Shown: positions 12,416 through 52,469, counted from the stretch's first letter. The stretch is 64,000 nt of DNA from Minisyncoccota bacterium (GCA_035546035.1 DASZXC010000003.1:64479-128478); one strand, 5' to 3'. Made by a program: numbers and translations. Notes: generated by a model not told the origin, from the sequence alone.

Positions 12416-12490
12416 GGTGCGCGGTATAGGACTTGAACCTATGACCCTCTCAACGTCAATGAGATGCTCTACCAACTGAGCTAACCGCGC
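12416..12490 (-). tRNA. tRNA-Val (anticodon GAC)
   Basis: Reverse complement folds as GCGCGGT..GCTCAGTTGGTAGAGC..TTGACGT..GGTTCAAGTCC..ACCGCGCACC. Confidence 0.75.
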
Positions 12491-12541
12491 TTATATTCAG
12501 GCTGTAAGGCCTACTTTACACGAAATCGAGGCTTTTTCAAC

Positions 12542-18093: not shown

Positions 18094-18115
18094 ATTTATA
18101 TTCTTAGGTGCTTAC

Positions 18116-18520: not shown

Positions 18521-18539
18521 AAAGTAATTATATTAAAAA

Positions 18540-21858: not shown

Positions 21859-21862
21859 ATAT

Positions 21863-22138
21863 TTATTTTCGTTTGAGCTTATATACCCTGATAATTTCTT
21901 CCTTTGCTTTTTTAGTCTGACCAGAGTGCATCTGATGATGTACACAGTGATCCAGATGGTTTTCGAGGAGCATGTCTTCGACGTTGGACAGACCCTGCTT
22001 GACTGCCGATGTTTGGGTAATCACATCAATACAGTAGGTATCGTTTTCAACCATTTTCTGAAGTCCTCTAACCTGACCTTCTAAAAGTTTGAGACGGCGG
22101 ACTACTTTCGCCTTATTTTTGTCATCCATGTATTTCAT
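21863..22138 (-). CDS. csoR: CsoR/RcnR-family metal-sensing transcriptional repressor
   Basis: 91 aa with the conserved Cys/His metal-site arrangement (YCIDV...H..C) in a helical bundle. Confidence 0.7.
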   Translation of the reverse strand: MKYMDDKNKAKVVRRLKLLEGQVRGLQKMVENDTYCIDVITQTSAVKQGLSNVEDMLLENHLDHCVHHQMHSGQTKKAKEEIIRVYKLKRK

Positions 22139-22227
22139 ACTGAAAGTATATACCCCCTAGGGGGTATTGTAAAGCGAAGTTACCAACAGTCTGGACTCAT
22201 TTAAGGATCAGCGTCATCCATTAGTGT

Positions 22228-22563
22228 GTGAAAGATGACGATATCGAAGCAATCATAGATGCGGCAAAGCATTTCAAGTACCACGAGCCGAGTGGCACTA
22301 CGCCCTTTAACCGCATCTCAAAGCTCCCTGAATCAAAGCGTCATATGAAAATGGCGATCAAAGAAAGGATCAGGCTATTGGTCGCTTCGTACATCTCTCT
22401 AGCTTCTTTCATCGACGATGACCTCGTCGATTTTCTTGAATACGGAGACACCAAGAATCACAAGAGAAAAGTGATTCGAATATATAACAAAGTTTTTAGA
22501 GAGTTTGAAAAGTTGAGAAAAGAGATCAGTCAGTTTGATCCTTTTGAGGTTCCGAAGGAGTAG
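22228..22563 (+). CDS. hypothetical protein
   Basis: 111-aa ORF in the low-GC island. Confidence 0.3.
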   Translation: MKDDDIEAIIDAAKHFKYHEPSGTTPFNRISKLPESKRHMKMAIKERIRLLVASYISLASFIDDDLVDFLEYGDTKNHKRKVIRIYNKVFREFEKLRKEISQFDPFEVPKE

Positions 22564-23896
22564 ATCGCTTCTTTCTTTTCGGACGATTCGCTTTCATCTG
22601 CTCTCGGCGCAAGCGTCTAGCCTCGTCCTTCTTCTTTTGCTCTTCTTCGCGTGCCTTCATTTCTTCTGGAGGAACGATACGCAAATGATTCATGATCTTG
22701 TAGCCCTTGAGATGCTCGAATGGATCGATAAATTTATACCACTCCTCCATGTGATAGTAATCTTTGCCATCTTTGCCTCTCGTCTTCACTGACTGTGATT
22801 TCAGCATATCTTTCGGTGGCAAGAAGTCTTTGTTGTCCTCAATGAGGAACAGTTCGGTATGTACTCCTTTGCCGTATTGGCTCACTGTGCGAGATTTCAC
22901 GATTCCTTCCTTGACCCATTTGCGGAGCGCAGGAGAGGTGACGTTGAAATAATGATCAAAATCGTATCTGGTGTACCAACTATCCTTTTCTTTTGCCAGC
23001 GATGCAGGAATTTCTCCGTCATCAATAGCTTTCTGACAAACAAGGCACTTGATACCGTATTCGTCATACCAATTATCGCCCTCTTTGGTGTGGTCTCCAC
23101 AAATGAAGCAACCGTAACCAACACCTTCGAGATGGAATCCTTTCGGGTTTTCTTTGAGCTTCTCGTCCCTGCGTTTCTGTTCCTCCTCAAACTCCTTGCC
23201 TAGCCGTGCTAGTTGCTCCATTCTGTATTTTTCATCGCTATATTCGGCACCTTCTTCGGCGCTCATACAGAAGCGGTCTCGGTCTTTGGCGAAGTCAGGA
23301 TCAAAGTCGTCGTCTTTCTTTGAATGCCATTCGTATTCTTCTTTTTCGACATAACCACACTTCGGACACGTGAGAGTAGTGACCAATTTCTTTCCATCGT
23401 CATCCATCTTCTTATCGAGTTCGGTACTGCAATGGAGACAAAAAGTTGGCTTCACTCTCCATTCCTCGCCATCGGAGAAAAAGGCGCGGCGAGGGAGGCA
23501 TTTGTTCGGACAATCAAACATGAAAAAGACTCGATCGCCTTTCTTGTCGTCCGATTGAAGATCCTTGAAGGTTACCGTCAGCCGATTACGACATGTGAGG
23601 CAACGAATGTCTTCGGGAGGCTGGGCGTTTTCCAAAAGCTCGTCTCGTTTCTTGTCCCGATCCATCCATTCGCGGATCGTCTCGCTTTTCTTAAGGTACC
23701 TTTCGCCCATAGTGCCACGCAGGTATAACTTCTTTGCCCAAGCCTCGACTCTTTGAGCCTCTTCCTTGTCGAGCTTGCTGTCCTCGGGAAGTGGTGTTGG
23801 CTTATCGCAGATCTTCTCTATGCGACGGCAATCCTCTACGGTGCCTCGGTCATAGAGGTCGATATAGTATTGATGACTTTTGAGATGTTTCGTCAT
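22526..23896 (-). CDS. hypothetical multi-zinc-ribbon protein with basic C-terminus
   Basis: At least six CxxC pairs (CLTCRN, CPNKC, CLHCS, CPKCG, CFICGDH, CLVCQK) and a Lys/Arg-rich tail. Confidence 0.4.
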   Translation of the reverse strand: MTKHLKSHQYYIDLYDRGTVEDCRRIEKICDKPTPLPEDSKLDKEEAQRVEAWAKKLYLRGTMGERYLKKSETIREWMDRDKKRDELLENAQPPEDIRCLTCRNRLTVTFKDLQSDDKKGDRVFFMFDCPNKCLPRRAFFSDGEEWRVKPTFCLHCSTELDKKMDDDGKKLVTTLTCPKCGYVEKEEYEWHSKKDDDFDPDFAKDRDRFCMSAEEGAEYSDEKYRMEQLARLGKEFEEEQKRRDEKLKENPKGFHLEGVGYGCFICGDHTKEGDNWYDEYGIKCLVCQKAIDDGEIPASLAKEKDSWYTRYDFDHYFNVTSPALRKWVKEGIVKSRTVSQYGKGVHTELFLIEDNKDFLPPKDMLKSQSVKTRGKDGKDYYHMEEWYKFIDPFEHLKGYKIMNHLRIVPPEEMKAREEEQKKKDEARRLRREQMKANRPKRKKRSTPSEPQKDQTD

Positions 23897-23954
23897 TTAT
23901 CCACATTTTATCAATTCTAATAATAGATTTCACTTTGTTTCTCTTTCTTTTGTA

Positions 23955-24177
23955 GGTTAATTTCGTTAACCACTTTCGGTTAACCTAGTTCACCAGTTTT
24001 GGTTAACTTTCTTTACTAGGTGGATAAGTTTTCCACAGGTTGCCCTAATACTAGGTTTCTCTTTGTTTCCTTTATTTTGTGTGTCTACGTAGTAGACCGA
24101 TATCGGTCTACTTTCTAGACCACTTTTGGTCTACTAGCTAGACTAGTCTGAAATTTAGACTACTTTTTCCACAGCCA
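23955..24177. repeat. iteron/palindrome-rich regulatory region upstream of the serine recombinase gene
   Basis: GGTTAAC x4 (23955-24007). 22-bp perfect palindrome agtagaccgatatcggtctact (24091-24112). Further GGTCTAC/TAGACC copies, an agactagtct palindrome, and two TTTCCACAG copies (about 24030 and 24168). Confidence 0.5.
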
Positions 24178-24247
24178 GTTACCAACTTCGAGGGAGTATG
24201 GGACGCTCTGGACTCCTAGGGCGAGTTGCGTCATTCCTTGTGTTTGT

Positions 24248-25579
24248 ATGACAAAAATACAAACATTAGAGCCATTAGGGACTGCGGCCAAAGTAGCAAG
24301 CCCCATAAGGGTGAAATACTGCCTTTATGCAAGAAAGTCGTCAGAGTCAGAGGAAAGACAGGTTTTGAGCATCGACAGCCAGATCAAGGAAATGCTCCAA
24401 CTGGCTGAAAGAGAGGGGCTTGAGATCGTGAACATGAAGCGTGAATCGCACTCGGCTAAGGAGACTGGGCAACGACCAGTCTTCAACGAAATCGTGGATG
24501 AGATCAAGCAAGGCAAGTTCAATGGGATTTTGACGTGGGCACCTGACCGTATCTCAAGAAACGCAGGCGACCTCGGAAAGATCGTGGACTTGATGGATGC
24601 GGGAAAGCTCCATGAGATACGCACTTTCGGGCAGAGCTTCCGTAACAATCCGAACGAGAAGTTTCTCCTGATGATTCTCGGGTCACAAGCGAAGCTCGAA
24701 AACGATAATCGAGGCATCAATGTGAAGCGAGGGTTGCGAACGCGAGTGGAGATGGGATTGTGGCCAGGAATGGCACCGCTCGGATATTTGAATCAAAAGT
24801 TGATGGACAAGAAATGTCGGATAGTAATTGATCCCGAACGCGCACCGATCGTAAAGCAGATGTTCGAGAAAGTGGCATTTGATCTCTGGTCTGGTCGCAA
24901 GGTATACAACTGGCTCCGATTCGAGCTTAATTTCCACACCAGAGGAAATAGACCACTAACACTCTCTGGTGTGTACCGAATGCTTCAAATGCCGATTTAT
25001 TACGGACCCTTTGAGTATCCGAAGAATAGCGGCAACTGGTATCAAGGAACGCATGAGCCATTGATCACCGAAGAATTATTCAAGAAAGTGCAGGAACAAC
25101 TGAAGCGAGACAAAATCGTGCGCGAGAACAGAGAGTTTGCCTTCACCAAACTCTTCACTTGCGGCATGTGCGGATCGGGCATCACGGCGCAGGAAAAGTA
25201 CAAGGAACTCAAGGACGGCACGAATGCGAAATACGTCTACTACTCCTGCTCGAAAGCGAGAGACAGGAACTGCAAGAACAAATACATTCGTGAGGAAGAA
25301 TTGATTGAGGAATTGTTTAAGATCATCGACAAGCTGAACATGAATGAACTCGGAATGCGGATGAAGCTCGAAGAAGAAATAAAGCGATTCAATCGATTGC
25401 AGAGACTTGCAACTAAGGGCAAACCAAAGATGCAGATCGATGAGGACGATATTGCCACGCGCGAGTATGCGAAATACGTCCTGCGCGAGGGTACGCCGTT
25501 AGAGAAGCGAGGGCTGATGGGGCACCTGAGATCGAGGCTTGTGCTAAATGACAAGAAAATTAGCCTGATTGAAGAATAA
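24248..25579 (+). CDS. large serine recombinase (integrase)
   Basis: N-terminal resolvase catalytic domain (YARKSSESEERQ...SIDSQ, RISRN), recombinase domain, C-terminal zinc ribbon (CGMCG...C..C). Confidence 0.8.
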   Translation: MTKIQTLEPLGTAAKVASPIRVKYCLYARKSSESEERQVLSIDSQIKEMLQLAEREGLEIVNMKRESHSAKETGQRPVFNEIVDEIKQGKFNGILTWAPDRISRNAGDLGKIVDLMDAGKLHEIRTFGQSFRNNPNEKFLLMILGSQAKLENDNRGINVKRGLRTRVEMGLWPGMAPLGYLNQKLMDKKCRIVIDPERAPIVKQMFEKVAFDLWSGRKVYNWLRFELNFHTRGNRPLTLSGVYRMLQMPIYYGPFEYPKNSGNWYQGTHEPLITEELFKKVQEQLKRDKIVRENREFAFTKLFTCGMCGSGITAQEKYKELKDGTNAKYVYYSCSKARDRNCKNKYIREEELIEELFKIIDKLNMNELGMRMKLEEEIKRFNRLQRLATKGKPKMQIDEDDIATREYAKYVLREGTPLEKRGLMGHLRSRLVLNDKKISLIEE

Positions 25580-25602
25580 AAATATAAAAAGAATGAGCCT
25601 CC

Positions 25603-25632
25603 GCAAAAAATTTCGCGGAGGCTCAAGTATTC
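25603..25632. terminator. bidirectional hairpin terminator between recombinase and DGR target gene
   Basis: gagcctccgcg / cgcggaggctc 11-bp stem with A/T-rich loop. Confidence 0.55.
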
Positions 25633-25662
25633 AAGAGGGACAAGCCCTCAAGGGATCAAGAA

Positions 25663-26469
25663 TCACTTCCTGGCAGCCGACAACCCGAGGTTGTCGTGGC
25701 GGTGGTCATCCCAGTAGTAGTTGACGAAGAGCCCGCCGGAATCGAAGAGGCCGACGTAGACACGGCTACCGCCCGAGCCGAGACTGGAAGTCCGAACGTA
25801 AACGCCTTCGAAGAGTCGGACACCACGGACCTCGAAATAGGTCGTGATGAACCAACACATCTCGGCGGCGTTCGGCACCTTCTCGAGCGCGGAGAGAAGC
25901 TTGTTCTGCTCGTTCCACGTCTTGCTGGTCGAGCTCGAAACAGGCGTCTTCTTGATCAGGAGCCAGCCGAAGGACGTCTTGTCCTCGCGGGCGAACTTCT
26001 GGTCGGCATACCACCCACCCGTCTTCAAGTGGAAGTGGGCAGGCTGAATCTCCCGAACGTTGAGCGTGGACATCGCAGTGGGCGGCGCAGGCATGACGGC
26101 GTAGCCGTTTTCCTTGCACCACGTGAGCACGTCCTCCGACGGCAGACTTTCGGCCAGTGCCGTGATCTGCTCGGCGGTGTAAACGATTGCTCTGCGAGCT
26201 TTCATGACTTCTTCCGGCGTGATGAAATCCGCGCCGAGGATGGATTGCGCCAAACCGTAGTCGGGCGCTTTTGCCGAGAAGCGACGGATTCCTTCAGCGA
26301 GATACTCGGCGAAGCCGGGATGCTCGTTCAGGATCTGTGCGCTTTCGTCCTTGAGTCCCGCCTTGTTGTATTGGGCGCGGAACGTTTCGGTAGCTCTCTG
26401 TCCTTTCGGACTGTCTGCGGTTACCAGTGCAGACGTGTTCAATGATTTTTTCATCGACATCATCTCCAT
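25663..26469 (-). CDS. DGR target (variable) protein with C-terminal C-type-lectin-like variable region
   Basis: C-terminus RVYVGLFDSGGLFVNYYWDDHRHDNLGLSAARK corresponds codon-for-codon to the TR-encoded DGNRVNVGNFDSDGLNVNNYWDDNRNDNIGLSAARQ. Differences fall only at TR adenines. Confidence 0.8.
   Translation of the reverse strand: MEMMSMKKSLNTSALVTADSPKGQRATETFRAQYNKAGLKDESAQILNEHPGFAEYLAEGIRRFSAKAPDYGLAQSILGADFITPEEVMKARRAIVYTAEQITALAESLPSEDVLTWCKENGYAVMPAPPTAMSTLNVREIQPAHFHLKTGGWYADQKFAREDKTSFGWLLIKKTPVSSSTSKTWNEQNKLLSALEKVPNAAEMCWFITTYFEVRGVRLFEGVYVRTSSLGSGGSRVYVGLFDSGGLFVNYYWDDHRHDNLGLSAARK
25669..25783 (-). repeat. DGR variable repeat (VR)
   Basis: 115-nt match to the TR with 13 mismatches, all at TR adenines. 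GC-rich IMH-like 3' end gtcggctgccagg. Confidence 0.85.
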
Positions 26470-26910
26470 TTTGCTGATTTACCGAGAACGCTCGGAACGA
26501 CTTGCCTCTGATTGAGACGAGTTTTCTAAGCCCTGAATTAAGGCTCAAAAAGCTCGTCTCAACAGTGATTCTCTATCAAAGAACTACCTAGCTAGTATAG
26601 CAAAGAAATGGCTATTTGTCAATGGTTTTGGCGATCTGTCAATCTCTGCGCTATACTATCAGCATCTTGCTAATGTAGCTTGGATTACGGTTCAAGCTCG
26701 CGAGATATCTCACCTTGAGATATCGCCAGAGTACCAGTGGTTTACGGATCACGGTAGAGCGCGATTAAGGATAGAGAGAACTTCTTGTTCGCTTCTAGAG
26801 GAGATACTTTGAAAGAAGTTGCTCCCGAATAAAATTCAGAGATGGGAGGATATAGACCTGCAAAGGTAGTAAACCTCGATTCTCGGTGACACAGATGGGA
26901 GCGGGCAATA

Positions 26911-27025
26911 TCTCGACTCGGACGGTAACCGTGTCAACGTCGGCAACTTCGATTCCGACGGGCTCAACGTCAACAACTACTGGGATGACAACCGCAACGA
27001 CAACATCGGGTTGTCGGCTGCCAGG
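26911..27025 (+). repeat. DGR template repeat (TR), AAC-codon rich
   Basis: 28 adenines. 13 of them are substituted in the VR and none of the 87 non-A positions differ. Boundaries set where non-A mismatches begin. Confidence 0.85.
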
Positions 27026-27075
27026 CAGTCATAGCTCTATCCAAGGAAACTTCCGCCAAAAAGCGGAAGTTTCTG

Positions 27076-27426
27076 TTAACGATCCTTCGTTGACTTTATC
27101 CACCCTCCGAGCATTCTCCCTATTTCGTCGAGATTGGCTTCGATGATGATATATTTCTTAGCATCAATCGCTTTGACGTCTTTCATCAGGCGAATGCAGA
27201 CTCGCAGGAAATTAAGTTTAACGCTCGTCTTCTCCAAAGTCGGTAACTTCTCGGACTTGGACTGCTGACTTGCGAAAATAATACCTTCCAGTACATCAAT
27301 AAGAAGGCTTTCGCACTTTTGCCAGAGCGTATAGCGGTCTTGCTTGGGTACAGTAAGACGAAGATTATAGAAATCTTTGTAGAGGTCATAACTTTTCTTG
27401 AAAATCGGTATGTCTAAGTCATTCAT
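27076..27426 (-). CDS. avd: DGR accessory variability determinant (Avd, four-helix-bundle protein)
   Basis: 116 aa. C-terminal IIIEANLDEIGRMLGGWIKSTKDR resembles the bAvd tail (LIAEVGRILGSWIARVNRK). Helix-bundle profile. Confidence 0.75.
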   Translation of the reverse strand: MNDLDIPIFKKSYDLYKDFYNLRLTVPKQDRYTLWQKCESLLIDVLEGIIFASQQSKSEKLPTLEKTSVKLNFLRVCIRLMKDVKAIDAKKYIIIEANLDEIGRMLGGWIKSTKDR

Positions 27427-27428
27427 AT

Positions 27429-28523
27429 ATGAAAATTTATAAGGATTTATATTGGTCGATAATTTCTCCCCAATCTCTATTCAGAGCTTGGGAAGTATTT
27501 AAGTCCGACAAAAGGAATAAACCTGACGTTTCCGAGTTTGAACTCCACATCGAGCAGAATATTTTTGATCTGTACCGCGATCTGAAGAATGAGACGTATC
27601 GACACGGGCCATATAAAGGATTCTGGATACACGATCCGAAGATCAGGCGCATACATAAGGCGGTTGTCCGAGATCGGGTGCTCCATCACGCGACCTTTTC
27701 GGTGCTGAACAAAATATTTGAGCCGACTTTTATCAATGACTCGTATTCGTGCCGTATCGGCAAAGGCACTCACAAAGGCGTGGAGAAAGTTGCTGATATG
27801 CTTCGTACAGCGAGCAAGAATAATACCCGCCAATGCTATGCACTCAAATGCGATGTGAGGAAATTCTTTGACTCTGTTGACCACCAAGTGTTGAAAGACA
27901 TCCTTGGTAGGAAAATCAAGGATCAAAAGACTATTTCTCTTCTGAAAGAGGTTATTGAGAGCTACGAGAAAAGCGGCACTTGCGAGAGAGAGAGAGAGAG
28001 AGAGAGTAAAACGCTGCCGCTTTTTACTACAAATACCAACAAAGGGGTGCCCATCGGCAACCTGACTTCGCAGATTTTCGCCAATATTTACATGAATGAG
28101 TTTGACCAGTTCGTTAAGCATGGGCTTCGGGTGAAAAATTACGCGCGTTACACCGACGATTTTATGATTATATCAGAGGACAAAGAATATCTCGAAAATT
28201 TACTGCCAAAATTGCAAGACTTTTTGAGAGAAAAACTGAAACTCGAACTGCATCCGAACAAGATATCTGTTCGTAAATTTCACGAAGGCATAGACTTCCT
28301 CGGGTATGTCATATTCCCGCATTATAAGCTCCTTAGAGCGAAAACCAAAAAGAGGGTTCTGAGAAATGTACGCAAGAAGATGGCTTGCTACCAAAAAGGA
28401 TTAATTCCTGAAAATCACTTACATCAAAGCATGCAGTCATATCTTGGCGTTTTGTCTCACGCGAATACCTACGAGCTGACGGAGAATTTGAAGAATCAGT
28501 ATTGGTTTTGGATGAAAGAGTAA
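27429..28523 (+). CDS. DGR reverse transcriptase
   Basis: RDRVLHHA and SYSCRIGKGTH N-terminal motifs, DGR-specific IGNLTSQ (in place of QGxxxSP), YTDD catalytic motif (RYTDDFMII). Confidence 0.9.
   Translation: MKIYKDLYWSIISPQSLFRAWEVFKSDKRNKPDVSEFELHIEQNIFDLYRDLKNETYRHGPYKGFWIHDPKIRRIHKAVVRDRVLHHATFSVLNKIFEPTFINDSYSCRIGKGTHKGVEKVADMLRTASKNNTRQCYALKCDVRKFFDSVDHQVLKDILGRKIKDQKTISLLKEVIESYEKSGTCERERERESKTLPLFTTNTNKGVPIGNLTSQIFANIYMNEFDQFVKHGLRVKNYARYTDDFMIISEDKEYLENLLPKLQDFLREKLKLELHPNKISVRKFHEGIDFLGYVIFPHYKLLRAKTKKRVLRNVRKKMACYQKGLIPENHLHQSMQSYLGVLSHANTYELTENLKNQYWFWMKE
27984..28006 (+). repeat. (GA)11 dinucleotide microsatellite inside the RT coding sequence (encodes ERERERES)
   Basis: gagagagagagagagagagagag read directly. 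In frame with the RT. Confidence 0.9.
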
Positions 28524-28530
28524 ACTACTT

Positions 28531-29319
28531 TTAGGCAAAGTGAGCTGTGAGCTTTGTCACATAATCTGCGTATTCTGAAAATATCTGAAGGTTCGCGTAC
28601 ACAACCTTTGCATCAAGTTTCTTTCCAGTAGGATGACCAGCGTCGTTTCGGTTGAGACGGATGAAATTGAAAATACCATCAAGATAAGTTTCCCAATTAT
28701 CCTGAAGTTCTTTGGGTAGAGATCGAACATCGTTTACAAACTCCTTTTTGAATTCCTTGTACTGGGTTGAAATGAATTTTTCCTTGGTGTTCTTTTCCAA
28801 TCTAGCTTTTCTCGTGGCGTCTGTGATCGAATCTATATATGCCTCAATAAGGGAGAGCATGAGATTCTCAGATGCCACACCAAGAGTGATAGTTGCAGAG
28901 AGAAGGTGGCGACGATGATATGCGGCGATCGCCTCGCCAATGTAGGCTAACGTGACATCATCAAGGGTAGGAACCTTTGTCTTTAATGCTTTAACGTATC
29001 CTTCAGGATCATACGGTAGCCAATTTTCCTCTTTGAATGCATGTTTGCCTAATTCAGTGACAGTAAGCCAAGGATATCCGCTATTAAAGTCGCCAGCTGT
29101 GCCAGGATAGATGTATCCGACATTTATCAACTCCTGAACTATCTCTCGGGCGACTGAGTGAATCTTGGCAACTTCCCAATGAGGACCATTGCCGTGAGGG
29201 AACAAAGCATACACTTGTCCCATCTGATGCTGTTGCATCTGATTAGGATTTGTTTCAGCCCAAACAACCTGACTCTTGAAATGCTCAAATATTTTATTTT
29301 TGATTTCTTCTCGAGTCAT
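28531..29319 (-). CDS. hypothetical protein
   Basis: 262-aa low-GC ORF between the DGR RT and tRNA-Ser. Confidence 0.4.
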   Translation of the reverse strand: MTREEIKNKIFEHFKSQVVWAETNPNQMQQHQMGQVYALFPHGNGPHWEVAKIHSVAREIVQELINVGYIYPGTAGDFNSGYPWLTVTELGKHAFKEENWLPYDPEGYVKALKTKVPTLDDVTLAYIGEAIAAYHRRHLLSATITLGVASENLMLSLIEAYIDSITDATRKARLEKNTKEKFISTQYKEFKKEFVNDVRSLPKELQDNWETYLDGIFNFIRLNRNDAGHPTGKKLDAKVVYANLQIFSEYADYVTKLTAHFA

Positions 29320-29407
29320 TTATTGTGAAAGTATAGCAACCTACTAGCTTTGTGGGTCACAGCTCAAACCAGAGCATGTGGGTCATCAAAACTAACAGGT
29401 TGTCAAT

Positions 29408-29495
29408 GCGGAGAGGGGGAGATTCGAACTCCCGATGAGGTTTCCCCCATACCGCATTTCGAGTGCGGCGCATTCGACCACTCTGCCACCTCTCC
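29408..29495 (-). tRNA. tRNA-Ser (anticodon CGA), long variable arm
   Basis: Reverse complement GGAGAGGTGGCAGAGTGGTCGAATGCGCCGCACTCGAAATGCGG...GGGAGTTCGAATCTCCCCCTCTCCG. Confidence 0.75.
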
Positions 29496-44794: not shown

Positions 44795-45325
44795 ATGTTC
44801 TCCGACCCTCGGCACAATATCGAACAATTAGGCCTTTCTGACGGCGCGATCGTCGCCGATTTCGGCGCGGGCTCCGGCTTCTATGCGGTAGAAGCCGGGA
44901 AAGCCGTCGCTCCGAGCGGCACGGTATACGCCGTCGATATACAAAGAGAGCTTCTCGAGCGCCTGAAAAAAGAAGCGCAACGTCTCGGCGCTAAAAACAT
45001 AGAGATCATCGCAGGCAATATCGAAAAACTGGGCGGCTCTAAAATAAGGGAGGGAACGTGCGACGCTGTCATCGCTTCGAACGTGCTTTTCATGGTCGAG
45101 AACCGCAAGAACCTGATTCTCGAAGCGAAGCGAGTCCTCAAGCCGAACGGCAGGCTCCTCGTCATAGATTGGGCCGCCTCTTTTTCCCAGATGGGCCCGC
45201 ACGGCGATCATGTCATATATAAAGATGATGCCATGAATCTCGGCTTGTCCGCAGGCCTCGAATTCGAGCGCGAGATCCGCGCCGGAGCGCACCACTATGG
45301 TATAATTTTCCGCAAAAGGCAATGA
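44795..45325 (+). CDS. class I SAM-dependent methyltransferase
   Basis: Motif I VADFGAGSGFYAV and acidic motif II. Confidence 0.6.
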   Translation: MFSDPRHNIEQLGLSDGAIVADFGAGSGFYAVEAGKAVAPSGTVYAVDIQRELLERLKKEAQRLGAKNIEIIAGNIEKLGGSKIREGTCDAVIASNVLFMVENRKNLILEAKRVLKPNGRLLVIDWAASFSQMGPHGDHVIYKDDAMNLGLSAGLEFEREIRAGAHHYGIIFRKRQ

Positions 45326-46617
45326 GATCAATGTCCCGATTTCAGCTGATTTTCACCGGCATCCTCGTCATCCTCGGTATTGGCGGCGTGGTTGCTTTTG
45401 CCGTATCTAAAAACAACTCTTCGCAGGGTCCGGCAGCCGTCGTCATGTGGGGATCGCTCGGCCAGGATGCCGTCCAAGCGTTCTTGAACAAGGTTGCTCC
45501 CGACCATCAGGACACGCTTAACGTCAGCTATGTATACAAGAGCCCCGCGACGTTCGAGTCGGATCTCGTGGCCGCTCTTGCCCGCGGCGCCGGTCCCGAC
45601 ATGGTGCTCCTTCCGCAGGACCTGATACTGAAGCAGAACGATAAATTCTATGTCATCCCGTTCGACAGCTATTCCGAGCGCACCTTTAAGGATTCGTTCA
45701 TCCAGGAAGGCGAGCTCTTCCTGAACAAAGACGGCATCGTCGGCCTTCCGTTCTCGATAGACCCTCTCGTCATGTATTGGAACCGCGACATGTTCTCCGA
45801 TGCCGGCGTGTCCCAGCCGCCAGTGTCGTGGGCGCAGTTCTTCGACCTCGCGCCGAAGCTCACGACCAAGGCGTCGAACGGCGTCATAACCCAATCTGCC
45901 ATCGCCTTCGGCGAGGCGAGGAACGTCACTCATTTCAAGGACGTGCTCTCGCTCCTTTCCATCCAGGCGGGAACGCCGATCGTCGCGTATGACGCGCAAG
46001 GGAATCTGGCGAGCGTCTTCAATAGCCGCGGCAAGGGATTGGTCCCTGCCGAGGAAGCGCTTTCCTACTACACCGAATTCTCGAACCCGCTCAAGTCGTC
46101 TTATTCGTGGAACCGGTCGCTCGCCAATGACCGCACGTCGTTCATCGCCGGAACGCTCGCCGTATATTTCGGCTCCGCGAGCGAGCTCCGCGGCCTCCGT
46201 TCCGCCAATCCTAACCTCAATTTCGACGTCGCCATGGTCCCGCAGACCGAAGGCAAGAAGGCGACGTTCGGGGCGATGAATGCCATCGCCATTTTGAAGT
46301 CGTCCAAGAACATCGCCGCTTCGTTCGTCGCCGCGGCGACGCTCACGAGCCAGGCTTTAGATACCGAATGGGCGGCCGCGTCGGGATATCCGCCGGTGCA
46401 TCGCGCGCTTCTTTCGAAGACGCCGGGCGATGCCTACAACGCCGTCTTCTATCAGAGCGCGCTTGTTTCGAGCGGTTGGCTCGATCCGAACAGGGAAGCG
46501 ACGACGGAGATCTTCGGTCAATTGATAGAGAACGTCACGTCGGGCAAGCTCCGCGTATCCGAATCGGTCAATCAAGCGACCCAGGAGATAGGGACGCTTC
46601 TGCGCGCGAATCAATGA
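45322..46617 (+). CDS. signal-anchored extracellular solute-binding-like protein
   Basis: N-terminal TM anchor, then a 400-aa periplasmic-binding-protein-like domain. Confidence 0.45.
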   Translation: MRSMSRFQLIFTGILVILGIGGVVAFAVSKNNSSQGPAAVVMWGSLGQDAVQAFLNKVAPDHQDTLNVSYVYKSPATFESDLVAALARGAGPDMVLLPQDLILKQNDKFYVIPFDSYSERTFKDSFIQEGELFLNKDGIVGLPFSIDPLVMYWNRDMFSDAGVSQPPVSWAQFFDLAPKLTTKASNGVITQSAIAFGEARNVTHFKDVLSLLSIQAGTPIVAYDAQGNLASVFNSRGKGLVPAEEALSYYTEFSNPLKSSYSWNRSLANDRTSFIAGTLAVYFGSASELRGLRSANPNLNFDVAMVPQTEGKKATFGAMNAIAILKSSKNIAASFVAAATLTSQALDTEWAAASGYPPVHRALLSKTPGDAYNAVFYQSALVSSGWLDPNREATTEIFGQLIENVTSGKLRVSESVNQATQEIGTLLRANQ

Positions 46618-46618
46618 T

Positions 46619-47101
46619 ATGAAATCCCTGAACAAAATAGTGCGGGTCATGTCGGCCGCGGCGGCATCGTTCGCTCTCGCTTTCATTTTTACCGCTTCCG
46701 CTGCCCATGCCCAGGGAGTCCAGGGCAAAGTCGGCACCGACGACCCGACCAAGAGCGAATTCCAGGTCGTCTCCTGCAATCCGACCTATAACCCTGCGAC
46801 GGGGAAGCTCGATAACGACTGCGATTTCCAGCAGCTCGTCGCCACGGCGTATCGCATCGTCAAATACATGCTGTTCCTCATCATCCCGGTCGTCGCCCTC
46901 ATGATCCTCTGGACCGGCTTCAAATACATGACCGCGGGTGGCGACGCCAATGCCGTCGCCGACGCCAAGCGCATGCTGAAGCCGATCGCCGTCGGCGTAT
47001 TCCTCATATTCGCGGCATGGCTCATCGTCTATACGATACTCGACAAGTTCCTCGCTCCGGCCGTCGGCGATATCCAGAAGTCGAGCATCATAGGAAAATA
47101 A
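46619..47101 (+). CDS. pilin-like small protein paralog 1 (VirB2/TrbC-like two-helix fold, putative)
   Basis: Signal peptide, Cys-containing extracellular segment, hydrophobic helix, short charged loop AGGDANAVADAK, second hydrophobic helix. Confidence 0.4.
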   Translation: MKSLNKIVRVMSAAAASFALAFIFTASAAHAQGVQGKVGTDDPTKSEFQVVSCNPTYNPATGKLDNDCDFQQLVATAYRIVKYMLFLIIPVVALMILWTGFKYMTAGGDANAVADAKRMLKPIAVGVFLIFAAWLIVYTILDKFLAPAVGDIQKSSIIGK

Positions 47102-47110
47102 TAGAATCAC

Positions 47111-47575
47111 ATGAAAAAGATCATTTACGCGCTCGCTCTCGTTTCGGTCCTCGTTCCGGCATTGGCGCATGCCCAGCAGCTTCAGCCGGTCGGACAGACG
47201 CCGACGCAGACTCTCGGCAATGGATCTGCCGGAGTCGGCCCTGGTTCGCAGAGCGCAGGAAATAATTCTCAATCGCTGGGGGGAAGCGACGCTCCTTCCG
47301 GCTTGGCCGCTCTTCCGAATCCTCTTTCCGGGGTGAACAGCATTTCAGACCTCATATACAAAGTGATACAGGTCGTTGTAGACATAAGCTATGTCGTCGT
47401 CGCGTTCTTCCTTCTCCTTTCGGGCTTCAAATTCATCACCGCGCAGGGAAGCGACAAGAAGCTCGACGAAGCAAAAAGCACTTTCTTCTATACTATCATC
47501 GGCGCAGCGCTCGTCATCGGCGCGCAGGTCATCGTGAGCATCCTCCAGGGCATATTCAACGGATTAAATTCATAG
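47111..47575 (+). CDS. pilin-like small protein paralog 2
   Basis: Signal peptide, Gly/Ser/Gln-rich segment, helix, loop AQGSDKKLDEAK, second helix. Hairpin terminator at 47582-47610. Confidence 0.4.
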   Translation: MKKIIYALALVSVLVPALAHAQQLQPVGQTPTQTLGNGSAGVGPGSQSAGNNSQSLGGSDAPSGLAALPNPLSGVNSISDLIYKVIQVVVDISYVVVAFFLLLSGFKFITAQGSDKKLDEAKSTFFYTIIGAALVIGAQVIVSILQGIFNGLNS

Positions 47576-47620
47576 ATAAAAAGGCCGGACAGATGATGTC
47601 CGGCCTTGAGTTCCATCGAG

Positions 47621-48535
47621 CTATTTTTTGACCCGGATGGAAAAGCTGTCATTTCTCGAATAGAACGAGACTCCCGTCGCATCGGTCGGCAGCATGAAGC
47701 CTCCGCTCACGGGCACTTCGACGTCGATCGTCCTCCAGCCGGTCAGATTAAGACGGGCATAGAGGCCGTATTTCGCTGAAACGCTCACGCGTCCGGCGCG
47801 CACCTCGCGCGCCGAGAATTCGCGCGAGAGCTGTCCCGGGGCGAGCTCGTACATGACGTATTCGCTGCCTCTGGACGAAGCCGATCCGACGGCGACGGGC
47901 CGCAAGCCGTCTTCGTCATAGAGCGACGAGACCTGCGGGACCTGTTGCGCCGGAGGCCGCGCTTCGACGGCGACCTGGCGCTCTGCGCCATTCGCGACGC
48001 TCGCATTCGGAGGCGGAATGCCGGTCGTCCCTGCCGGAGCGGGTGATTCGACGCGGGAGCGGACTTCGGCGAGCCGTTTAGACAGATCATCGAGCGACTG
48101 GTTCAGGGCGGCCCGATTGCTGTCATTCGCGGCCGCAGCGTCTTGGAATCTCTTTCCTTGATCGATGACGGATTGGCGCGTCTTTTCGCCGTCGGTGACG
48201 ACGATGCCCGCGAGGCTGGTCACCGAATCGGTCAGAGCCTTGAGCTCTTTCTGCGATGTGAGCGCCGCGAGCGCCTGGCGCGTCTTTTCGCCGTCTTCGG
48301 CGATTTCCTTTTTCATCTCCGCCGCCGCTCCCGCCCCGTCGGCCTTGTTCGGCCGAAGGCCGAGAAGGGCGATGAGCGTGACGATGAGGAGGACGAGGGT
48401 CGCGGCTGAAACGCCGAGAACCGCGATCGCGATCGCCGGGGAGCCCCTGGTCTGGGGCTCGTCCGGATCGGTGGGGAGCCCGTCTCCCGATCTGGACCCT
48501 TCTTCAGGGGTTTCCGAGGAATGTGATGGTTTCAT
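47621..48535 (-). CDS. hypothetical membrane-anchored coiled-coil protein
   Basis: Acidic N-terminus, one TM helix, Ala/Glu-rich coiled-coil, beta-rich C-terminus. Confidence 0.35.
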   Translation of the reverse strand: MKPSHSSETPEEGSRSGDGLPTDPDEPQTRGSPAIAIAVLGVSAATLVLLIVTLIALLGLRPNKADGAGAAAEMKKEIAEDGEKTRQALAALTSQKELKALTDSVTSLAGIVVTDGEKTRQSVIDQGKRFQDAAAANDSNRAALNQSLDDLSKRLAEVRSRVESPAPAGTTGIPPPNASVANGAERQVAVEARPPAQQVPQVSSLYDEDGLRPVAVGSASSRGSEYVMYELAPGQLSREFSAREVRAGRVSVSAKYGLYARLNLTGWRTIDVEVPVSGGFMLPTDATGVSFYSRNDSFSIRVKK

Positions 48536-48613
48536 AAGAGTGTGCTTGTTCCGACTTTACTACGTACGGCTGTGGTATAATGTATCCACCTATTAGGAAG
48601 GAATAAAAGCACT

Positions 48614-49000
48614 ATGAAGAAAGCATTTTTGAAGCCGTCGTTGGTCCTGGGCGCGGCCCTTTCAGTCTTCGGCGCCAATGCCGCTCTTGCCGCCGACGCC
48701 TCGATATCGAGCTCGTGCAGCAACCTCGCCTCGTCGGGACTAGGCGGTCTCGTGGGCTGTATCATCGGTATCCTCGACAATATAACGGTCATCATCATCG
48801 CCGCGTCGGTCGTCTACATCATCTGGGGCGCTTTCAATATGATCAAAAGCGAGGAAAAGAGGGAATCGGGCCGCCAGACCGTCGTCTACGGCATCATCGG
48901 CCTTTTCGCTATGATCTCGATCTGGGGCTTCGTGAATATCCTCAACAATACCTTCAACCTCAAGCAGGACTACATCCAGCCTCCTAAATTCCATCCGTAA
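48614..49000 (+). CDS. pilin-like small protein paralog 3
   Basis: Signal peptide, two Cys, helix, loop KSEEKRESGRQ, second helix (IWGFVNILNNTF). Confidence 0.4.
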   Translation: MKKAFLKPSLVLGAALSVFGANAALAADASISSSCSNLASSGLGGLVGCIIGILDNITVIIIAASVVYIIWGAFNMIKSEEKRESGRQTVVYGIIGLFAMISIWGFVNILNNTFNLKQDYIQPPKFHP

Positions 49001-49099
49001 TATCCGTAGGGCGGATTATCCCCATATATCGTGTAGAGCCTTCTTTTTCCTGCTACAATAAAGGAGCAAAGCTCTTATCCGAGCGGCATTAATAGTTTT

Positions 49100-49477
49100 T
49101 TGATCACTATGAAAAAATTCAGTTACATGGCGGCTCTTTCGGCGGCGCTCCCGTTCTCGGCGGCGGCCGCTCCGATAACCGACATTTGGAGCATATTCCG
49201 TTTTGTTCAGAGCCTCCTCAACACGATCCTGCCCCTCATTATCGCAGCGGCGGTCGTATGGTTCGTATGGAGCATGTTCCAGCTCTTCCTCGCGGGCGAT
49301 GCGGAAGAGAAGAAGGAGAAGGCGAAGACCAACATCATCTACGGCGTCGTCGCTATCTTCGTGATGGTCTCCATCTGGGGCCTCGTCAACATCCTCGTCA
49401 ACACGTTCGGCTTGAGCAACCAGTCTCCGACGACGAACGGCACCAACCAGCTCCCGAACATTCCGATCAACGGCTAA
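49100..49477 (+). CDS. pilin-like small protein paralog 4
   Basis: Signal peptide, helix, loop AGDAEEKKEKAK, second helix (IWGLVNILVNTF, near-identical to paralog 3). Confidence 0.4.
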   Translation: MITMKKFSYMAALSAALPFSAAAAPITDIWSIFRFVQSLLNTILPLIIAAAVVWFVWSMFQLFLAGDAEEKKEKAKTNIIYGVVAIFVMVSIWGLVNILVNTFGLSNQSPTTNGTNQLPNIPING

Positions 49478-49493
49478 CTAGCACGAGCGGATC

Positions 49494-49742
49494 ATGGATA
49501 CGCTGAACCAGCCGATAGTCCAAAAGCTCTTCTCGCTGGTCGTCGATCCCTTGATCCAGCTCATCTTCGCCGCGGCCGTAGTCTATTTCCTCTGGGGAGT
49601 ATTCAAATACATCCAGGCGGCGGATGATCCGGACGAAAGGATACAAGGCGGCAAGCACATCATCTGGAGCGTCATAGGGCTCTTCATCATGATCTCGGTC
49701 TGGGGAATCATAGCGGTGATCAAACGGACGATAGGGGTATAG
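49494..49742 (+). CDS. pilin-like small protein paralog 5 (no signal peptide)
   Basis: Helix, loop AADDPDERIQGGK, second helix (VWGIIAVIKRTIG). Hairpin terminator at 49753-49783. Confidence 0.35.
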   Translation: MDTLNQPIVQKLFSLVVDPLIQLIFAAAVVYFLWGVFKYIQAADDPDERIQGGKHIIWSVIGLFIMISVWGIIAVIKRTIGV

Positions 49743-49794
49743 AGCAATAAAAAAGGGGCGAAGCTTACGGCTTCGCCCCTTTGAATTATCCGAA

Positions 49795-50340
49795 CTAATA
49801 GTTCGAATCGACGGTGAACGTCACATCTCCATCGGGAATGAACCTCGCATAGACCGCTTTGCGCCAGACGCGACCGGTTTGGTCGTCCAGGCGCACGAGC
49901 TTTCCGTCAGCGGAGACCTCGTAAAAGGTCTCGCTCTCGTTCCGGAACTTCCGTTTCACCCCGTTAGAGTCTTGCAACTCGTAGGTGACCTTTTCGTCCG
50001 CGGGAACGATGTGGATCCATTTTCCGACGATGCTTATCCAGGGCGACGTCGCCCCTGCCTGCACCTGGTACGGCTTGCCGATCATGAGATCGGGCATGCC
50101 GCCGACCGGGACGGGCTGGGGGATGAGGGCCGCCGGGCTTGCGCTCGTCGTCCGTTTTTCTCGCGTATCAGACATTTGTGTGTCGCCGCGCGAGCCGTGA
50201 CCTGATATTGCTACGACGCAGAACCCACCCCATAGGATAAGAAGGAAGCCTAGGAGACCGAGTGTGATCCGGTTCTTGGTCGACTTATTGCCTGAAGGAG
50301 TAGACGCCGTTTTCTGTGCGGGGCTTACTGTTGCAGCCAT
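49795..50340 (-). CDS. hypothetical membrane-anchored protein
   Basis: 181 aa with an N-terminal TM anchor. Confidence 0.3.
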   Translation of the reverse strand: MAATVSPAQKTASTPSGNKSTKNRITLGLLGFLLILWGGFCVVAISGHGSRGDTQMSDTREKRTTSASPAALIPQPVPVGGMPDLMIGKPYQVQAGATSPWISIVGKWIHIVPADEKVTYELQDSNGVKRKFRNESETFYEVSADGKLVRLDDQTGRVWRKAVYARFIPDGDVTFTVDSNY

Positions 50341-50342
50341 GT

Positions 50343-51515
50343 TTAACGGTTCCTTTTCTTTCTGTCGTTACGGTTTCCATTTCCCTGGCCTCCGCCTTGT
50401 CCGCCGCCGGCGCCGATGAAGGCGCCGGCGCCAAGAGCGACGGTTCTTGCGTGTTCCAGTCCCACGAAATGATGGACATTTTCCTGTCGGACCAACTCCA
50501 TCGCGCCGCTTATCGCCATCGCTCCTTGAAACGACAGATTAGGATCAACGCCGAGTTCTTTATATCTCCGCGTGTTCTCCTCGACAAGCTCGCCTTGAGG
50601 CTTGGCCCTTATCACTTCTTTCGCCGCGGGATCGTTACAGAGGATGCTTCGAAGCCTGGGCGAAATAACGCTTACGCCGAGCCTGTGCTCAAACTCCGTC
50701 ACCTCTCCGTCACTCTTGAAGAGTTTCCGGACCCATTGACTGACGTCCCCGGCGTGTGTGAGAAGCGTCTGGAGCTTGTACTTGCCGCCGATGATGCTCA
50801 GTCTGCTGTTCATTACCGCACGTATACGGCTTTCGCGGACTTCGGGCTTGTAGCGAAGGAAATTCCTGATCCCCTCCGCGTCTTCAAGCGGTCTCGCCAG
50901 CAATTCCCATTCCAGATCGCATTGATATGGATCGTTCGTAGAAATCCTGAGCGAAGACGTCTTTTTCTCATCCTGATCGTACATAGCAGATATCTTGATT
51001 TCGTCGTTACGGAAATCGATCGTTTGTTGGAGGCTCATCCATGGAGCGATCACGTAGAACCCGAGCTTGTAGGCAAAGAGTTCGCCCGTGAACTCGTCCA
51101 TGTAGACCTCTGCCTTCATCATGTCGACTCCGATGAGGAATCGATGGATGGTGAAGTGCATAACGATGACCGTGAGGACGAGCGTCGCCATTACGGAATG
51201 CAGAAAAACAAGTCCATAAAGGTAGCGCAAGATGCCGAACGGCACGAAGAGCACGAGCGAGACATAGATCAGGGCGATCAGAATATGATTCGTATCACCC
51301 CAACCTTTTTCGATCACCGTAACATGGACATTGTCGCCATCGGGGTCGGTTCCGGCCTTGCGGCCTTCGTCTTCCTCGATCTGGTCATAATCCGGCAGAT
51401 CGATCGCTTCTTGCGGCGTTTCCGCCGCGGGCACTATCGCTGACGTCGCTGGAGCGGCGGTCGGGGCCGCTTTCGGTTCCGTCGGTTGTTCTGGCGTTTC
51501 ATCTGGCATTTTCAA
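50343..51515 (-). CDS. SPFH/band-7 (stomatin/flotillin-like) domain protein with Gly-rich basic tail
   Basis: Acidic N-terminus, TM hairpin, SPFH-like core, C-terminal GAGGGQGGGQGNGNRNDRKKRNR. Confidence 0.45.
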   Translation of the reverse strand: MKMPDETPEQPTEPKAAPTAAPATSAIVPAAETPQEAIDLPDYDQIEEDEGRKAGTDPDGDNVHVTVIEKGWGDTNHILIALIYVSLVLFVPFGILRYLYGLVFLHSVMATLVLTVIVMHFTIHRFLIGVDMMKAEVYMDEFTGELFAYKLGFYVIAPWMSLQQTIDFRNDEIKISAMYDQDEKKTSSLRISTNDPYQCDLEWELLARPLEDAEGIRNFLRYKPEVRESRIRAVMNSRLSIIGGKYKLQTLLTHAGDVSQWVRKLFKSDGEVTEFEHRLGVSVISPRLRSILCNDPAAKEVIRAKPQGELVEENTRRYKELGVDPNLSFQGAMAISGAMELVRQENVHHFVGLEHARTVALGAGAFIGAGGGQGGGQGNGNRNDRKKRNR

Positions 51516-51689
51516 TCCTTTCGTTGAGTTTCAGTGTTGAAGATGTGGTTTCTTGTCAAAAGAGCAGGGAGGGAGACCCTCCAAACTCGAACTGGTTCGG
51601 GTATAATTATATACTATTTATTGGCAAAAGTCAAATAGTATCGAGCGCCTAGCCAGGCCGCATCCAAGCCCTATTTCGGCCTTGTTTTG

Positions 51690-51771
51690 TGGGCACGGAG
51701 AGACTCGAACTCTCAATCCGTGAGGAACCGGTTCCTAAGACCGGCGCGTATACCAATTCCGCCACGTGCCC
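51690..51771 (-). tRNA. tRNA-Leu (anticodon TAG)
   Basis: Reverse complement GGGCACGTGGCGGAATTGGTA...CTTAGGA...long variable arm...GAGTTCGAGTCTCTCCGTGCCCA. Confidence 0.75.
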
Positions 51772-52130
51772 ATGAGAAAGAGCTTAGCACACTGATTGAC
51801 GTATGCCGACGCCTGTGTAATCTGGGGTCAAACGCTCCTTATATGCATCAAAGACCACGCTGGGGAAATTGTCTTCTCATGGCACTTCTCGCATTCGCGA
51901 AGGATCCTTTCTCTTGCAGTATCTATAGGTCCGTCGACAAGAAGGGCAGATCCCATTTCTTCTGGAGAACCGGAAAAGGATTCTTCGGATTCTGCCCTCT
52001 GCGCGAGCTGCCCGATACCAAGCTCGCCAGATATTGGTATCGGGGGGAGGGAGAGGCAGATAATCGCCTTCGTCTCTCTGGCGGAATCCTCCGCGGTACA
52101 GAAGTCCTTAGAAGGACTAATGAAGGATTT

Positions 52131-52170
52131 CAACCGACACGCAGCTTGAGAGCGTGCCGGTTTTTTTTAT
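52131..52170 (+). terminator. rho-independent terminator (plus strand) ending an unassigned 390-bp segment
   Basis: ccgacacgc agcttgaga gcgtgccgg followed by tttttttt. Confidence 0.55.
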
Positions 52171-52172
52171 TG

Positions 52173-52245
52173 TCCGCCCTGTAGGGATCGAACCTACGAC
52201 CTTATCCTTAAGAGGGATCTGCTCTACCAACTGAGCTAAGGGCGG
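52173..52245 (-). tRNA. tRNA-Lys (anticodon CTT)
   Basis: Reverse complement CCGCCCTTAGCTCAGTTGGTAGAGC..CTCTTAA..GGTTCGATCCCTACAGGGCGGA. One mismatch at the top of the anticodon stem. Confidence 0.6.
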
Positions 52246-52306
52246 ATATCTGCATTCGGCGCCTGAAAAATGTAACAGAAAAAGCGCCGCATGGCAATTT
52301 TCCGGG

Positions 52307-52393
52307 TGCCTGGGGTGGGCATCGAACCCACATGCCTTGTTTAAGGGCGAGGGATTTTAAGTCCCTTGCGTATACCAATTCCGCCACCCAGGC
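52307..52393 (-). tRNA. tRNA-Leu (anticodon TAA)
   Basis: Reverse complement GCCTGGGTGGCGGAATTGGTATACGC AAGGGACTTAAAATCCCT, long variable arm, GTGGGTTCGATGCCCAC CCCAGGCA. Confidence 0.75.
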
Positions 52394-52397
52394 AGTG

Positions 52398-52469
52398 AGG
52401 CCACGGCGGGAATCGAACCCGCGCATAGCGGTTTTGCAGACCGCCGAATTACCACTTTTCTACGTGGCC
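52398..52469 (-). tRNA. tRNA-Cys (anticodon GCA)
   Basis: Reverse complement GGCCACGTAGAAAAGTGGTAATTCGGCGGTCTGCAAAACCGC..GCGGGTTCGATTCCCGCCGTGGCCT. Confidence 0.7.

Follow-up and report, generated by a model that had tools for sequence, protein, structure and literature searches.

A tandem array of five VirB2-like pilin genes in a conserved housekeeping locus of Paceibacteria

A tandem array of five small plus-strand genes, here called P1 to P5, was characterised at positions 46619-49742 of a 64 kb sequence from a Candidatus Paceibacterota metagenome-assembled genome (MAG); this whole stretch is referred to as the window. We hold it probable, at roughly 0.7, that the five products are VirB2-type pilins which would be assembled, by a type IV secretion system (T4SS) encoded elsewhere, into one heteromeric host-contact structure. 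The array belongs to a kind of feature already published for Patescibacteria, and its interpretation as a pilin array, first put forward as a candidate in an initial annotation of the window, is right. A search of 3,035 Patescibacteria genomes with the CONJScan profiles together with PF04956 and PF18895 recorded VirB2-like pilins in 1,948 VirB4-containing assemblies, as well as 441 tandem VirB2-like arrays of 2-11 genes, with a mean paralog identity of 25% and a maximum of 54% (Quinonero-Coronel et al., 2025; PMC12102498). The series of predicted pilins in the T4SS cluster of Southlakia epibionticum was found to be essential (Wang et al., 2023; PMC10633639), and a 2025 review names six divergent VirB2-like pilins as a unique feature of the Patescibacteria T4SS (PMC12857230). 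The proposal that T4SS pilins occur in reduced-genome episymbionts thus agrees with these three sources, in which the same kind of array forms part of an essential Patescibacteria T4SS.

Family membership and architecture of the five proteins

All five proteins score above the gathering score of the Pfam family PF18895 (T4SS_pilin; 26.6 bits), with 38.1 bits for P1, 32.0 for P2, 27.1 for P3, which passes narrowly, 43.1 for P4 and 46.0 for P5, and five such matches are far beyond chance. The TrbC/VirB2 profile PF04956 (gathering score 27.9), which the initial annotation had recommended as a check, recognises P2 at 29.2 bits, making it the most TrbC-like of the five; P1 falls just below at 26.4, P3 reaches 12.0, and P4 and P5 give no match. 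With the NCBIfam model NF045849 (Mbov_0395 pilin-like conjugal transfer; cut-off 40), it is P5 that passes (43.1 bits), and P4 (33.8), P3 (21.8), P1 (20.1) and P2 (9.5) remain below. A family profile built from the P4 homologues and the four other paralogs ranked TraM of pKM101 (8cw4), a pilin, first among PDB sequences, with a weak E-value of 0.026. A tblastn search of P5 against 72,556 plasmids gave no match and thus offers no direct link to any known conjugative plasmid. The PrgF-like relationship that had also been suggested was rejected, since pCF10 PrgF has no PF18895 match and its hhalign probability against the family alignment is 0.7%. No holin or bacteriocin immunity family of Pfam or NCBIfam matched any of the five proteins at E <= 1; PHROGs was not searched.

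The open reading frame (ORF) listing and hydropathy bear out the layout first described, namely five plus-strand genes for proteins of 82-160 aa with one shared architecture (Table 1). In each protein two hydrophobic helices flank a short charged loop, the hairpin expected of PF18895, and the loop sequences originally quoted are all present. P1 to P4 start with a signal-peptide-like segment with an A-x-A end (AHA/Q, AHA/Q, ALA/A and AAA, the slash marking the predicted cleavage site) and P5 has none, in keeping with a signal peptide that had been called optional. The outward N-segments differ between the paralogs. That of P1, predicted to be extracellular, is about 45 aa long with a conserved Cys pair, that of P3 is short and also has a conserved Cys pair, and the orthologues of P1 and P3 retain these pairs. 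The W/G-motif ends that had been noticed were both found, SIWGFVNILNNTF in P3 and SIWGLVNILVNTF in P4. P4, with an uncharged C-tail, is a member of the most conserved class (MxSxWGLVNIL) and has 136 homologues at E <= 1e-3; its deposited protein is the 122-aa form starting at ATG 49109. Pairwise local identity among P1 to P5 is 16-38%. In the public record only P1 (HVU06370.1) and P4 (HVU06374.1, identical) are labelled 'pilin', and P2 (VHE10_01055), P3, P5 and an inserted minus-strand gene, X304, are hypothetical proteins (VHE10_01055 to VHE10_01075).

An AlphaFold2 (AF2) model of P4 on the family-profile alignment shows a signal helix followed by a hairpin of residues 26-61 and 66-99, with a mean predicted local distance difference test (pLDDT) score of 72.9 and values of 74-87 in the two hairpin helices. 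From these properties the following course can be proposed. P1 to P4 would be exported through signal peptides that are probably cleaved, and P5 would insert without one. Each pilin would then sit in the membrane as a hairpin with both termini outside and its Lys/Glu-rich loop in the cytoplasm, as suggested by the charge distribution and the AF2 model; the loop is placed there because it is lysine-rich and the positive-inside rule applies. A VirB4/TrsD/VirB3/VirB6 machine encoded elsewhere on the chromosome would extract the subunits and build one surface filament or conduit, which, judging from homology and from what is published for other Patescibacteria, may contact the host cell. The paralogs most likely co-assemble in fixed roles, in which P4/P5-like members would form the core and P1 to P3 would add outward-facing N-terminal segments.

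The array in related genomes

To place the array among its relatives, the motif [FA][VI]M[VI]S[VI]WG[LI] was scanned in one genome per GTDB species, yielding at least 584 confirmed loci, and the best 80 of these, two closed chromosomes included, form the set of about 80 species-level loci used below. All are from Patescibacteria/Paceibacterota MAGs. With a custom hidden Markov model (HMM), 4-7 tandem pilin ORFs were found in nearly all of the loci whose contigs span the array, on the same strand in every one except locus L017. The 68 complete arrays hold four (n=8), five (n=42), six (n=16) or seven genes (n=2). Gene order is P1, P2, one to four P3/P4-like genes and then P5, which is the last gene in nearly all arrays. 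Because this order is otherwise fixed, variation in copy number is confined to the middle genes; paralog number, which the initial annotation had proposed to compare between strains, thus differs between genomes (4-7 genes) only through the middle P3/P4-like copies. In three loci an extra P3-like pilin gene stands away from the array, between gyrA and a methyltransferase gene (L012:4695-5156, L013:4847-5317 and L014:5144-5611), and in L017 two detached P3-like genes lie in the same interval on the opposite strand (807-1852).

For each window paralog the best match comes from the corresponding array position in other genomes (identities in Table 1), and the paralogs of its own genome match much more weakly. 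The genomes compared have solute-binding proteins (SBPs, encoded just upstream of the array) that are only about 57% identical. The five paralogs are therefore ancient and position-specific, and not recent or interchangeable copies.

A HMMER search of 1.84 billion cluster representatives returned 47,528 members of the family at E <= 1e-3, of which 8,927 reach E <= 1e-10. Many of the top-scoring matches are single chains of 2-8 hairpins with one N-terminal signal peptide, predicted to be polytopic with 4-16 transmembrane (TM) helices; since ranking by total score favours multi-domain proteins, the frequency of such fusions is overstated. Class HMMs identified fusions of adjacent members among them, of the P4-P5 type (P0169, P0184 and P0186) and of the P2-P3 type; the fusion proteins noted were P0123, P0127, P0133, P0165, P0169, P0184, P0186 and P0196. 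The existence of these natural fusions argues that adjacent array members share one topology and would stand side by side in one assembly, and it would account for a P5 without a signal peptide of its own. We found no description of pilin-hairpin fusions in the literature consulted on Patescibacteria pilin arrays.

The array occupies one housekeeping position in the set, gyrA-methyltransferase-SBP-array...infB-clpB. In three relatives the synteny extends over S1, an MBL-fold gene, gyrA, a variable stretch, the methyltransferase, the SBP, five pilins and, further on, rbfA, infB, an aminotransferase and clpB, and the infB-clpB block also follows the arrays in related loci. The methyltransferase-SBP pair is directly upstream in 64 of the 69 loci with enough upstream DNA (phmmer). 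In the window the genes are tightly packed: the gaps from gyrA through the methyltransferase, SBP and P1 to P2 are 7, -4, 1 and 9 nt, so that the methyltransferase gene runs 4 nt into the SBP gene and a single nucleotide separates the SBP stop from the start of P1. The gene which had been called solute-binding-like indeed matches PF01547 (SBP_bac_1, 59 bits), and among solved structures the closest is MBP1, which binds manno-oligosaccharides (4r9f; E = 2.5e-18), with further sugar SBPs behind it. No ATP-binding cassette (ABC) permease or ATPase was seen within 10 kb in L002 and L006. As predicted from its sequence, this SBP is an orphan, sugar-type and membrane-anchored protein. Speculatively, the co-transcribed SBP works at the same surface structure as the pilins, e.g., in host-glycan binding or substrate capture. 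A literature search turned up no report that connects an SBP with VirB2-like pilins in Patescibacteria.

Distance from T4SS genes and competing readings

The initial annotation had seen no VirB4/VirD4 ATPase in the window, which holds for the large ORFs scanned and extends to the related loci. Several observations speak against pilins served by a remote T4SS, and this absence comes first: VirB4, VirD4, VirB6 and VirB3 were not found among the large ORFs scanned, covering 46 kb upstream and 14 kb downstream, and no VirB4-size ATPase with a Walker A motif lies within 10 kb of the array in the approximately 80 relatives. By contrast, the arrays of Saccharimonadia and Microgenomatia sit inside the T4SS cluster (PMC12102498). 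Of the three array-bearing genomes shared with Table S1 of that study (loci L034, L055 and L061), two were scored VirB4-negative, as was one further genome with a T_virB2 match in its tables; the VirB4-negative array-bearing genomes are Taylorbacteria RIFCSPHIGHO2_01_FULL_51_15, Parcubacteria Greene1014_15 and GCA_000989665.1, and these scores are confounded by incompleteness because the genomes are draft MAGs. The TraM match is only weak, and our literature search found no report of a pilus in any Paceibacteria. The polytopic fusions of up to eight hairpins could mean a membrane-resident complex and not an extruded filament. A Foldseek search of the P4 hairpin model against the PDB gave no significant match, a null result that we used neither way because a two-helix hairpin is not discriminating.

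Large unannotated ORFs near the arrays of relatives were tried as T4SS components, and none qualified. Among ORFs of at least 400 aa within 10 kb in the set, a Walker A motif occurs in one only, an unannotated 462-aa protein, and the ten large flanking ORFs sampled with Pfam, this one included, are MurJ, RelA/SpoT, TopA, an SPFH protein or unknowns. The window array is thus adjacent to none of VirB4, TrsD, VirB3 and VirB6, the neighbours reported for PF18895 genes, and it lies neither inside nor near a virB4 cluster, as judged from the window's scanned ORFs and the related loci.

In many Patescibacteria the PF18895 genes listed in Table S3 of that study are 2-10 genes from VirB4, TrsD, VirB3 or VirB6, and every PF18895 row consulted is flagged 'Yes' for VirB4 proximity. 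For Paceibacteria the same table gives a VirB6-VirB3-TrsD-VirB4-x-PF18895 cluster with one PF18895 pilin, and also a T_virB2 and FATA_PrgF pair, three genes apart, at 50-180 genes from the cluster and marked 'VirB4 proximity: No' (PMC12102498). The spacing of this pair fits P2 and P5 of the window array, and the FATA_PrgF profile matches P5-like genes of Paceibacteria in these rows; of such remote arrays, the table thus seems to catch two genes only. In the tables consulted, nine of ten Paceibacteria with the remote 'T_virB2...PrgF' signature have VirB4. Because the PF18895 rows consulted are all near VirB4 and Fig. S9 describes arrays "near virB4", the remote Paceibacteria array is probably not among the 441, which is our deduction and not the authors' statement; on this partial view, the published table seems to under-count remote Paceibacteria arrays.

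If the T4SS is taken out of the picture, the hairpins might oligomerise as a pore or platform that works with the SBP as a new uptake or sensing module. We regard this as unlikely. The stop/start coupling of SBP and P1 and the SBP directly upstream in 64/69 loci would fit it, as would an SBP that in L002 and L006 has neither an ABC permease nor an ATPase close by, the lack of a VirB4-like ATPase near the array in about 80 loci, the array-bearing genomes scored VirB4-negative and the fusions with their 4-16 TM helices. However, homology ties the proteins to TrbC/VirB2 and to PF18895, a Pfam family whose members flank VirB4 in other Patescibacteria; in the tables consulted VirB4 is present in most Paceibacteria that carry the array signature, T4SS genes are scattered in some genomes (PMC12102498), and no case is known of a pore built from VirB2-like hairpins and fed by an SBP. 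In a related form, to which we assign a small chance only, the Paceibacteria hairpin set (P1, P2, one to four middle members and P5) wired to an orphan sugar SBP would form an organelle of its own at the surface or in the membrane, perhaps a conduit for sensing glycans or capturing nutrients, either VirB4-independent or only loosely tied to VirB4.

The paralogs may instead be alternative major pilins, used singly so that the pilus surface varies for different host strains or in escape from defence, as the authors of PMC12102498 suggested for Patescibacteria along the lines proposed for the VirB2 paralogs of Bartonella and Anaplasma. The low identity of 16-38% between paralogs and the variation of the middle P3/P4-like copies from one to four between species are in its favour. 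Nevertheless, orthologues are position-specific across genomes with SBPs only about 57% identical, P1, P2 and P5 are fixed in position and distinct in architecture, adjacent members are covalently fused in nature, and the genes are co-transcribed, with no switching elements found in a promoter and terminator scan in which repeats or invertible segments were not sought; singly used pilins are thus distinctly improbable. That holins, bacteriocin immunity proteins or toxin-antitoxin-like peptides merely mimic the pilin topology, a thought prompted by how common and convergent small two-TM proteins are and by a fold search that cannot discriminate them, can be put aside as extremely improbable in the face of five above-threshold pilin-family matches with zero to holin or immunity families of Pfam or NCBIfam, signal peptides in four of the five proteins, a core-genome housekeeping locus that is neither phage nor bacteriocin in context, and conservation across about 80 species-level genomes.

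Gene neighbourhood and comparison with known systems

The genes and predicted signals around the array are listed in Table 1. The methyltransferase orthologues in L002 and L006 match the Pfam families Ubie_methyltran and Methyltransf_11/25. The inserted gene X304 agrees with what had been described as a membrane coiled-coil gene interrupting the array on the other strand: its product has a disordered N-terminus, a single TM helix (33-57), a long helical stalk (68-162), a Pro-rich linker and a small C-terminal beta domain at about 222-304, with an AF2 pLDDT of 57 overall and about 80 in the beta domain. Fold matches were weak and cupin-like only (E >= 0.04), no Pfam or NCBIfam family matched and no T4SS family was recognised. 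Besides the protein itself a single database homologue was found. Divergent homologues of 22-33% identity occur at six loci only, those of the six closest species (L007:5320-6147, L008:8417-9475, L010:2321-3307, L011:8629-9747, L016:8147-9193 and L024:8152-9225), always on the minus strand and at the P2/P3 or P3/P4 junction; the P4 pilins at the six loci share 49-83% identity with window P4. X304 appears to be a rapidly evolving surface protein inserted into the array in a single clade.

Table 1. Coordinates of the array, its neighbouring genes and predicted signals in the window.
Feature	Coordinates	Strand	Description	Identity to same-position genes
Methyltransferase	44795-45325	+	small class-I S-adenosylmethionine methyltransferase; ORF; kept directly upstream of SBP	
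SBP	45322-46617	+	PF01547 SBP_bac_1, 59 bits; N-terminal membrane anchor	
P1	46619-47101	+	160 aa; signal peptide (..AHA/QG); two-helix hairpin	33-39%; best matches in L002 and L006
P2	47111-47575	+	154 aa; signal peptide (AHA/Q); Gly/Ser/Gln-rich N-segment; hairpin	42% (L002 and L006)
Hairpin	47581-47607		GC-rich, 11 pairs, T-run on minus strand; between convergent P2 and X304; candidate terminator	
X304	47621-48535	-	304 aa; between P2 and P3; bitopic membrane protein, non-pilin	
Promoter candidate	48573-48581	+	extended -10 TGgTATAAT, ahead of P3-P4-P5	
Shine-Dalgarno	48595-48602	+	AGGAAGGA, ahead of P3	
P3	48614-49000	+	128 aa; signal peptide (..ALA/AD); hairpin terminating in SIWGFVNILNNTF	45-67% (L002, L004, L006)
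P4	49100/49109-49477	+	125 aa from TTG, 122 aa from ATG 49109; signal peptide; hairpin	52-84%
P5	49494-49742	+	82 aa; minimal paralog, hairpin only, no signal peptide	55-69%
Hairpin	49752-49782		AAAGGGGCGAAGC...GCTTCGCCCCTTT, 13 pairs, 8 GC; between P5 and convergent 181-aa gene; candidate bidirectional terminator	
181-aa gene	49795-50340	-	between P5 and 390-aa gene; convergent with P5	
390-aa gene	50343-51515	-	two genes downstream of P5	

The hairpin between P2 and X304 is a candidate terminator for X304 and possibly also for the gyrA-to-P2 unit, and the strong symmetric hairpin behind P5 is a candidate bidirectional terminator that would end the array. For P3-P4-P5 a separate candidate promoter was read directly from the sequence; the consensus scan did not report it because no -35 hexamer fits.

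On the downstream side, the initial annotation had an SPFH-domain gene flanking the array, which was borne out in part. The 390-aa protein itself has no SPFH/Band_7 match, so its SPFH identity is unsupported, and the 181-aa gene intervenes between it and P5; nevertheless, its positional counterparts do match Band_7/SPFH, at 29.0 bits in L007:8019-9677 (gathering score 23.6) and faintly in L004:2626-3795. Both downstream genes evolve fast, and their positional counterparts in close relatives are barely or not alignable. Four tRNA genes (Leu-tag, Lys-ctt, Leu-taa and Cys-gca; 51689-52469, minus strand) lie between them and rbfA-infB. Elsewhere the window carries housekeeping genes (murJ, lepA, leuS, tsaD, ftsZ, ftsA, hisS, rpsA, gyrA, infB, clpB and dnaX). 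A low-GC island at 12500-29400 (GC 0.44-0.50 vs. 0.54-0.58 elsewhere in the window), flanked by tRNA-Val (12415-12490) and tRNA-Ser (29408-29495), carries two N6/N4 DNA methylases, a terminase-like/ResIII protein of 698 aa, an HMA+DsbD_2 protein, a copper P-type ATPase, a large serine recombinase (24248-25579) and a reverse transcriptase (27429-28523), and probably represents a mobile element that has integrated or what is left of a prophage. Targeting by a diversity-generating retroelement was dropped, as no template/variable repeat was found near this reverse transcriptase.

Much of bacterial diversity belongs to the Patescibacteria, which depend on other cells and of which Paceibacteria are the largest class. 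Few systems have been shown to be essential for the epibiotic lifestyle, and the Patescibacteria T4SS with its pilin array is among them. The existence of such arrays was already known, and there the window adds little; what it adds is a five-gene Paceibacteria array that is a core-genome feature with fixed order, position-specific orthologues and natural fusions, together with a sugar-binding partner and a location far from ATPase genes. These properties set testable constraints, i.e., heteromeric assembly, a glycan-binding accessory and possible VirB4 independence, and the remote location suggests that neighbourhood-restricted surveys under-count such arrays. An SBP-wired organelle, if real, would put the VirB2 fold to a new use and be a candidate means by which these bacteria dock to hosts or feed from them.

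Among known systems, PrgF of the Enterococcus plasmid pCF10 (MPF_FATA) is likewise a small two-TM protein from a monoderm T4SS operon but differs in lacking a PF18895 match and any significant profile similarity to the array family. The Gram-negative TrbC/VirB2 pilins (A. tumefaciens VirB2, RP4 TrbC and pKM101 TraM) share the signal peptide and the two helices with a short charged loop, and the likeness extends to P2 above the PF04956 threshold and to TraM as top PDB match of the family profile. However, only one of the five proteins passes PF04956, the host is monoderm, five paralogs are co-encoded in place of a single major pilin, and none of VirB5, VirB7, VirB9 and VirB10 was seen for the window array. 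Mbov_0395 and MMCAP2_0565 of Mycoplasma integrative conjugative elements (ICEs) resemble P5 as two-helix proteins of about 80 aa with no signal peptide in a wall-less or monoderm host, but the Mycoplasma protein is encoded by a single gene in a mobile conjugative element, whereas P5 is the last of five chromosomal genes without ICE features around. In Bartonella and Anaplasma phagocytophilum, compared here by their description in PMC12102498, divergent VirB2 genes also stand side by side in a host-dependent bacterium; these paralogs are thought to serve antigenic or host-range variation, whereas the orthology and fusions of the window family point to fixed complementary roles.

The closest likeness is to the Patescibacteria arrays themselves (the essential one in the SEML1_0006-0019 T4SS cluster of S. 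epibionticum ML1, that of TM7x and the 441). They share PF18895, with or without PF04956, a chromosomal location in a monoderm lineage of reduced genomes, and low paralog identity (16-38% here against a mean of 25% and a maximum of 54%), and with five genes and X304 the window array has the published form of 2-11 genes in tandem or with one non-pilin gene between them. The published arrays lie no more than about 20 genes from virB4 and were reported mainly in Saccharimonadia and Microgenomatia, whereas the array described here belongs to Paceibacteria, lies in a gyrA...infB housekeeping locus with no VirB4-like gene closer than 14-46 kb, and is coupled to an SBP with its paralogs in a fixed order.

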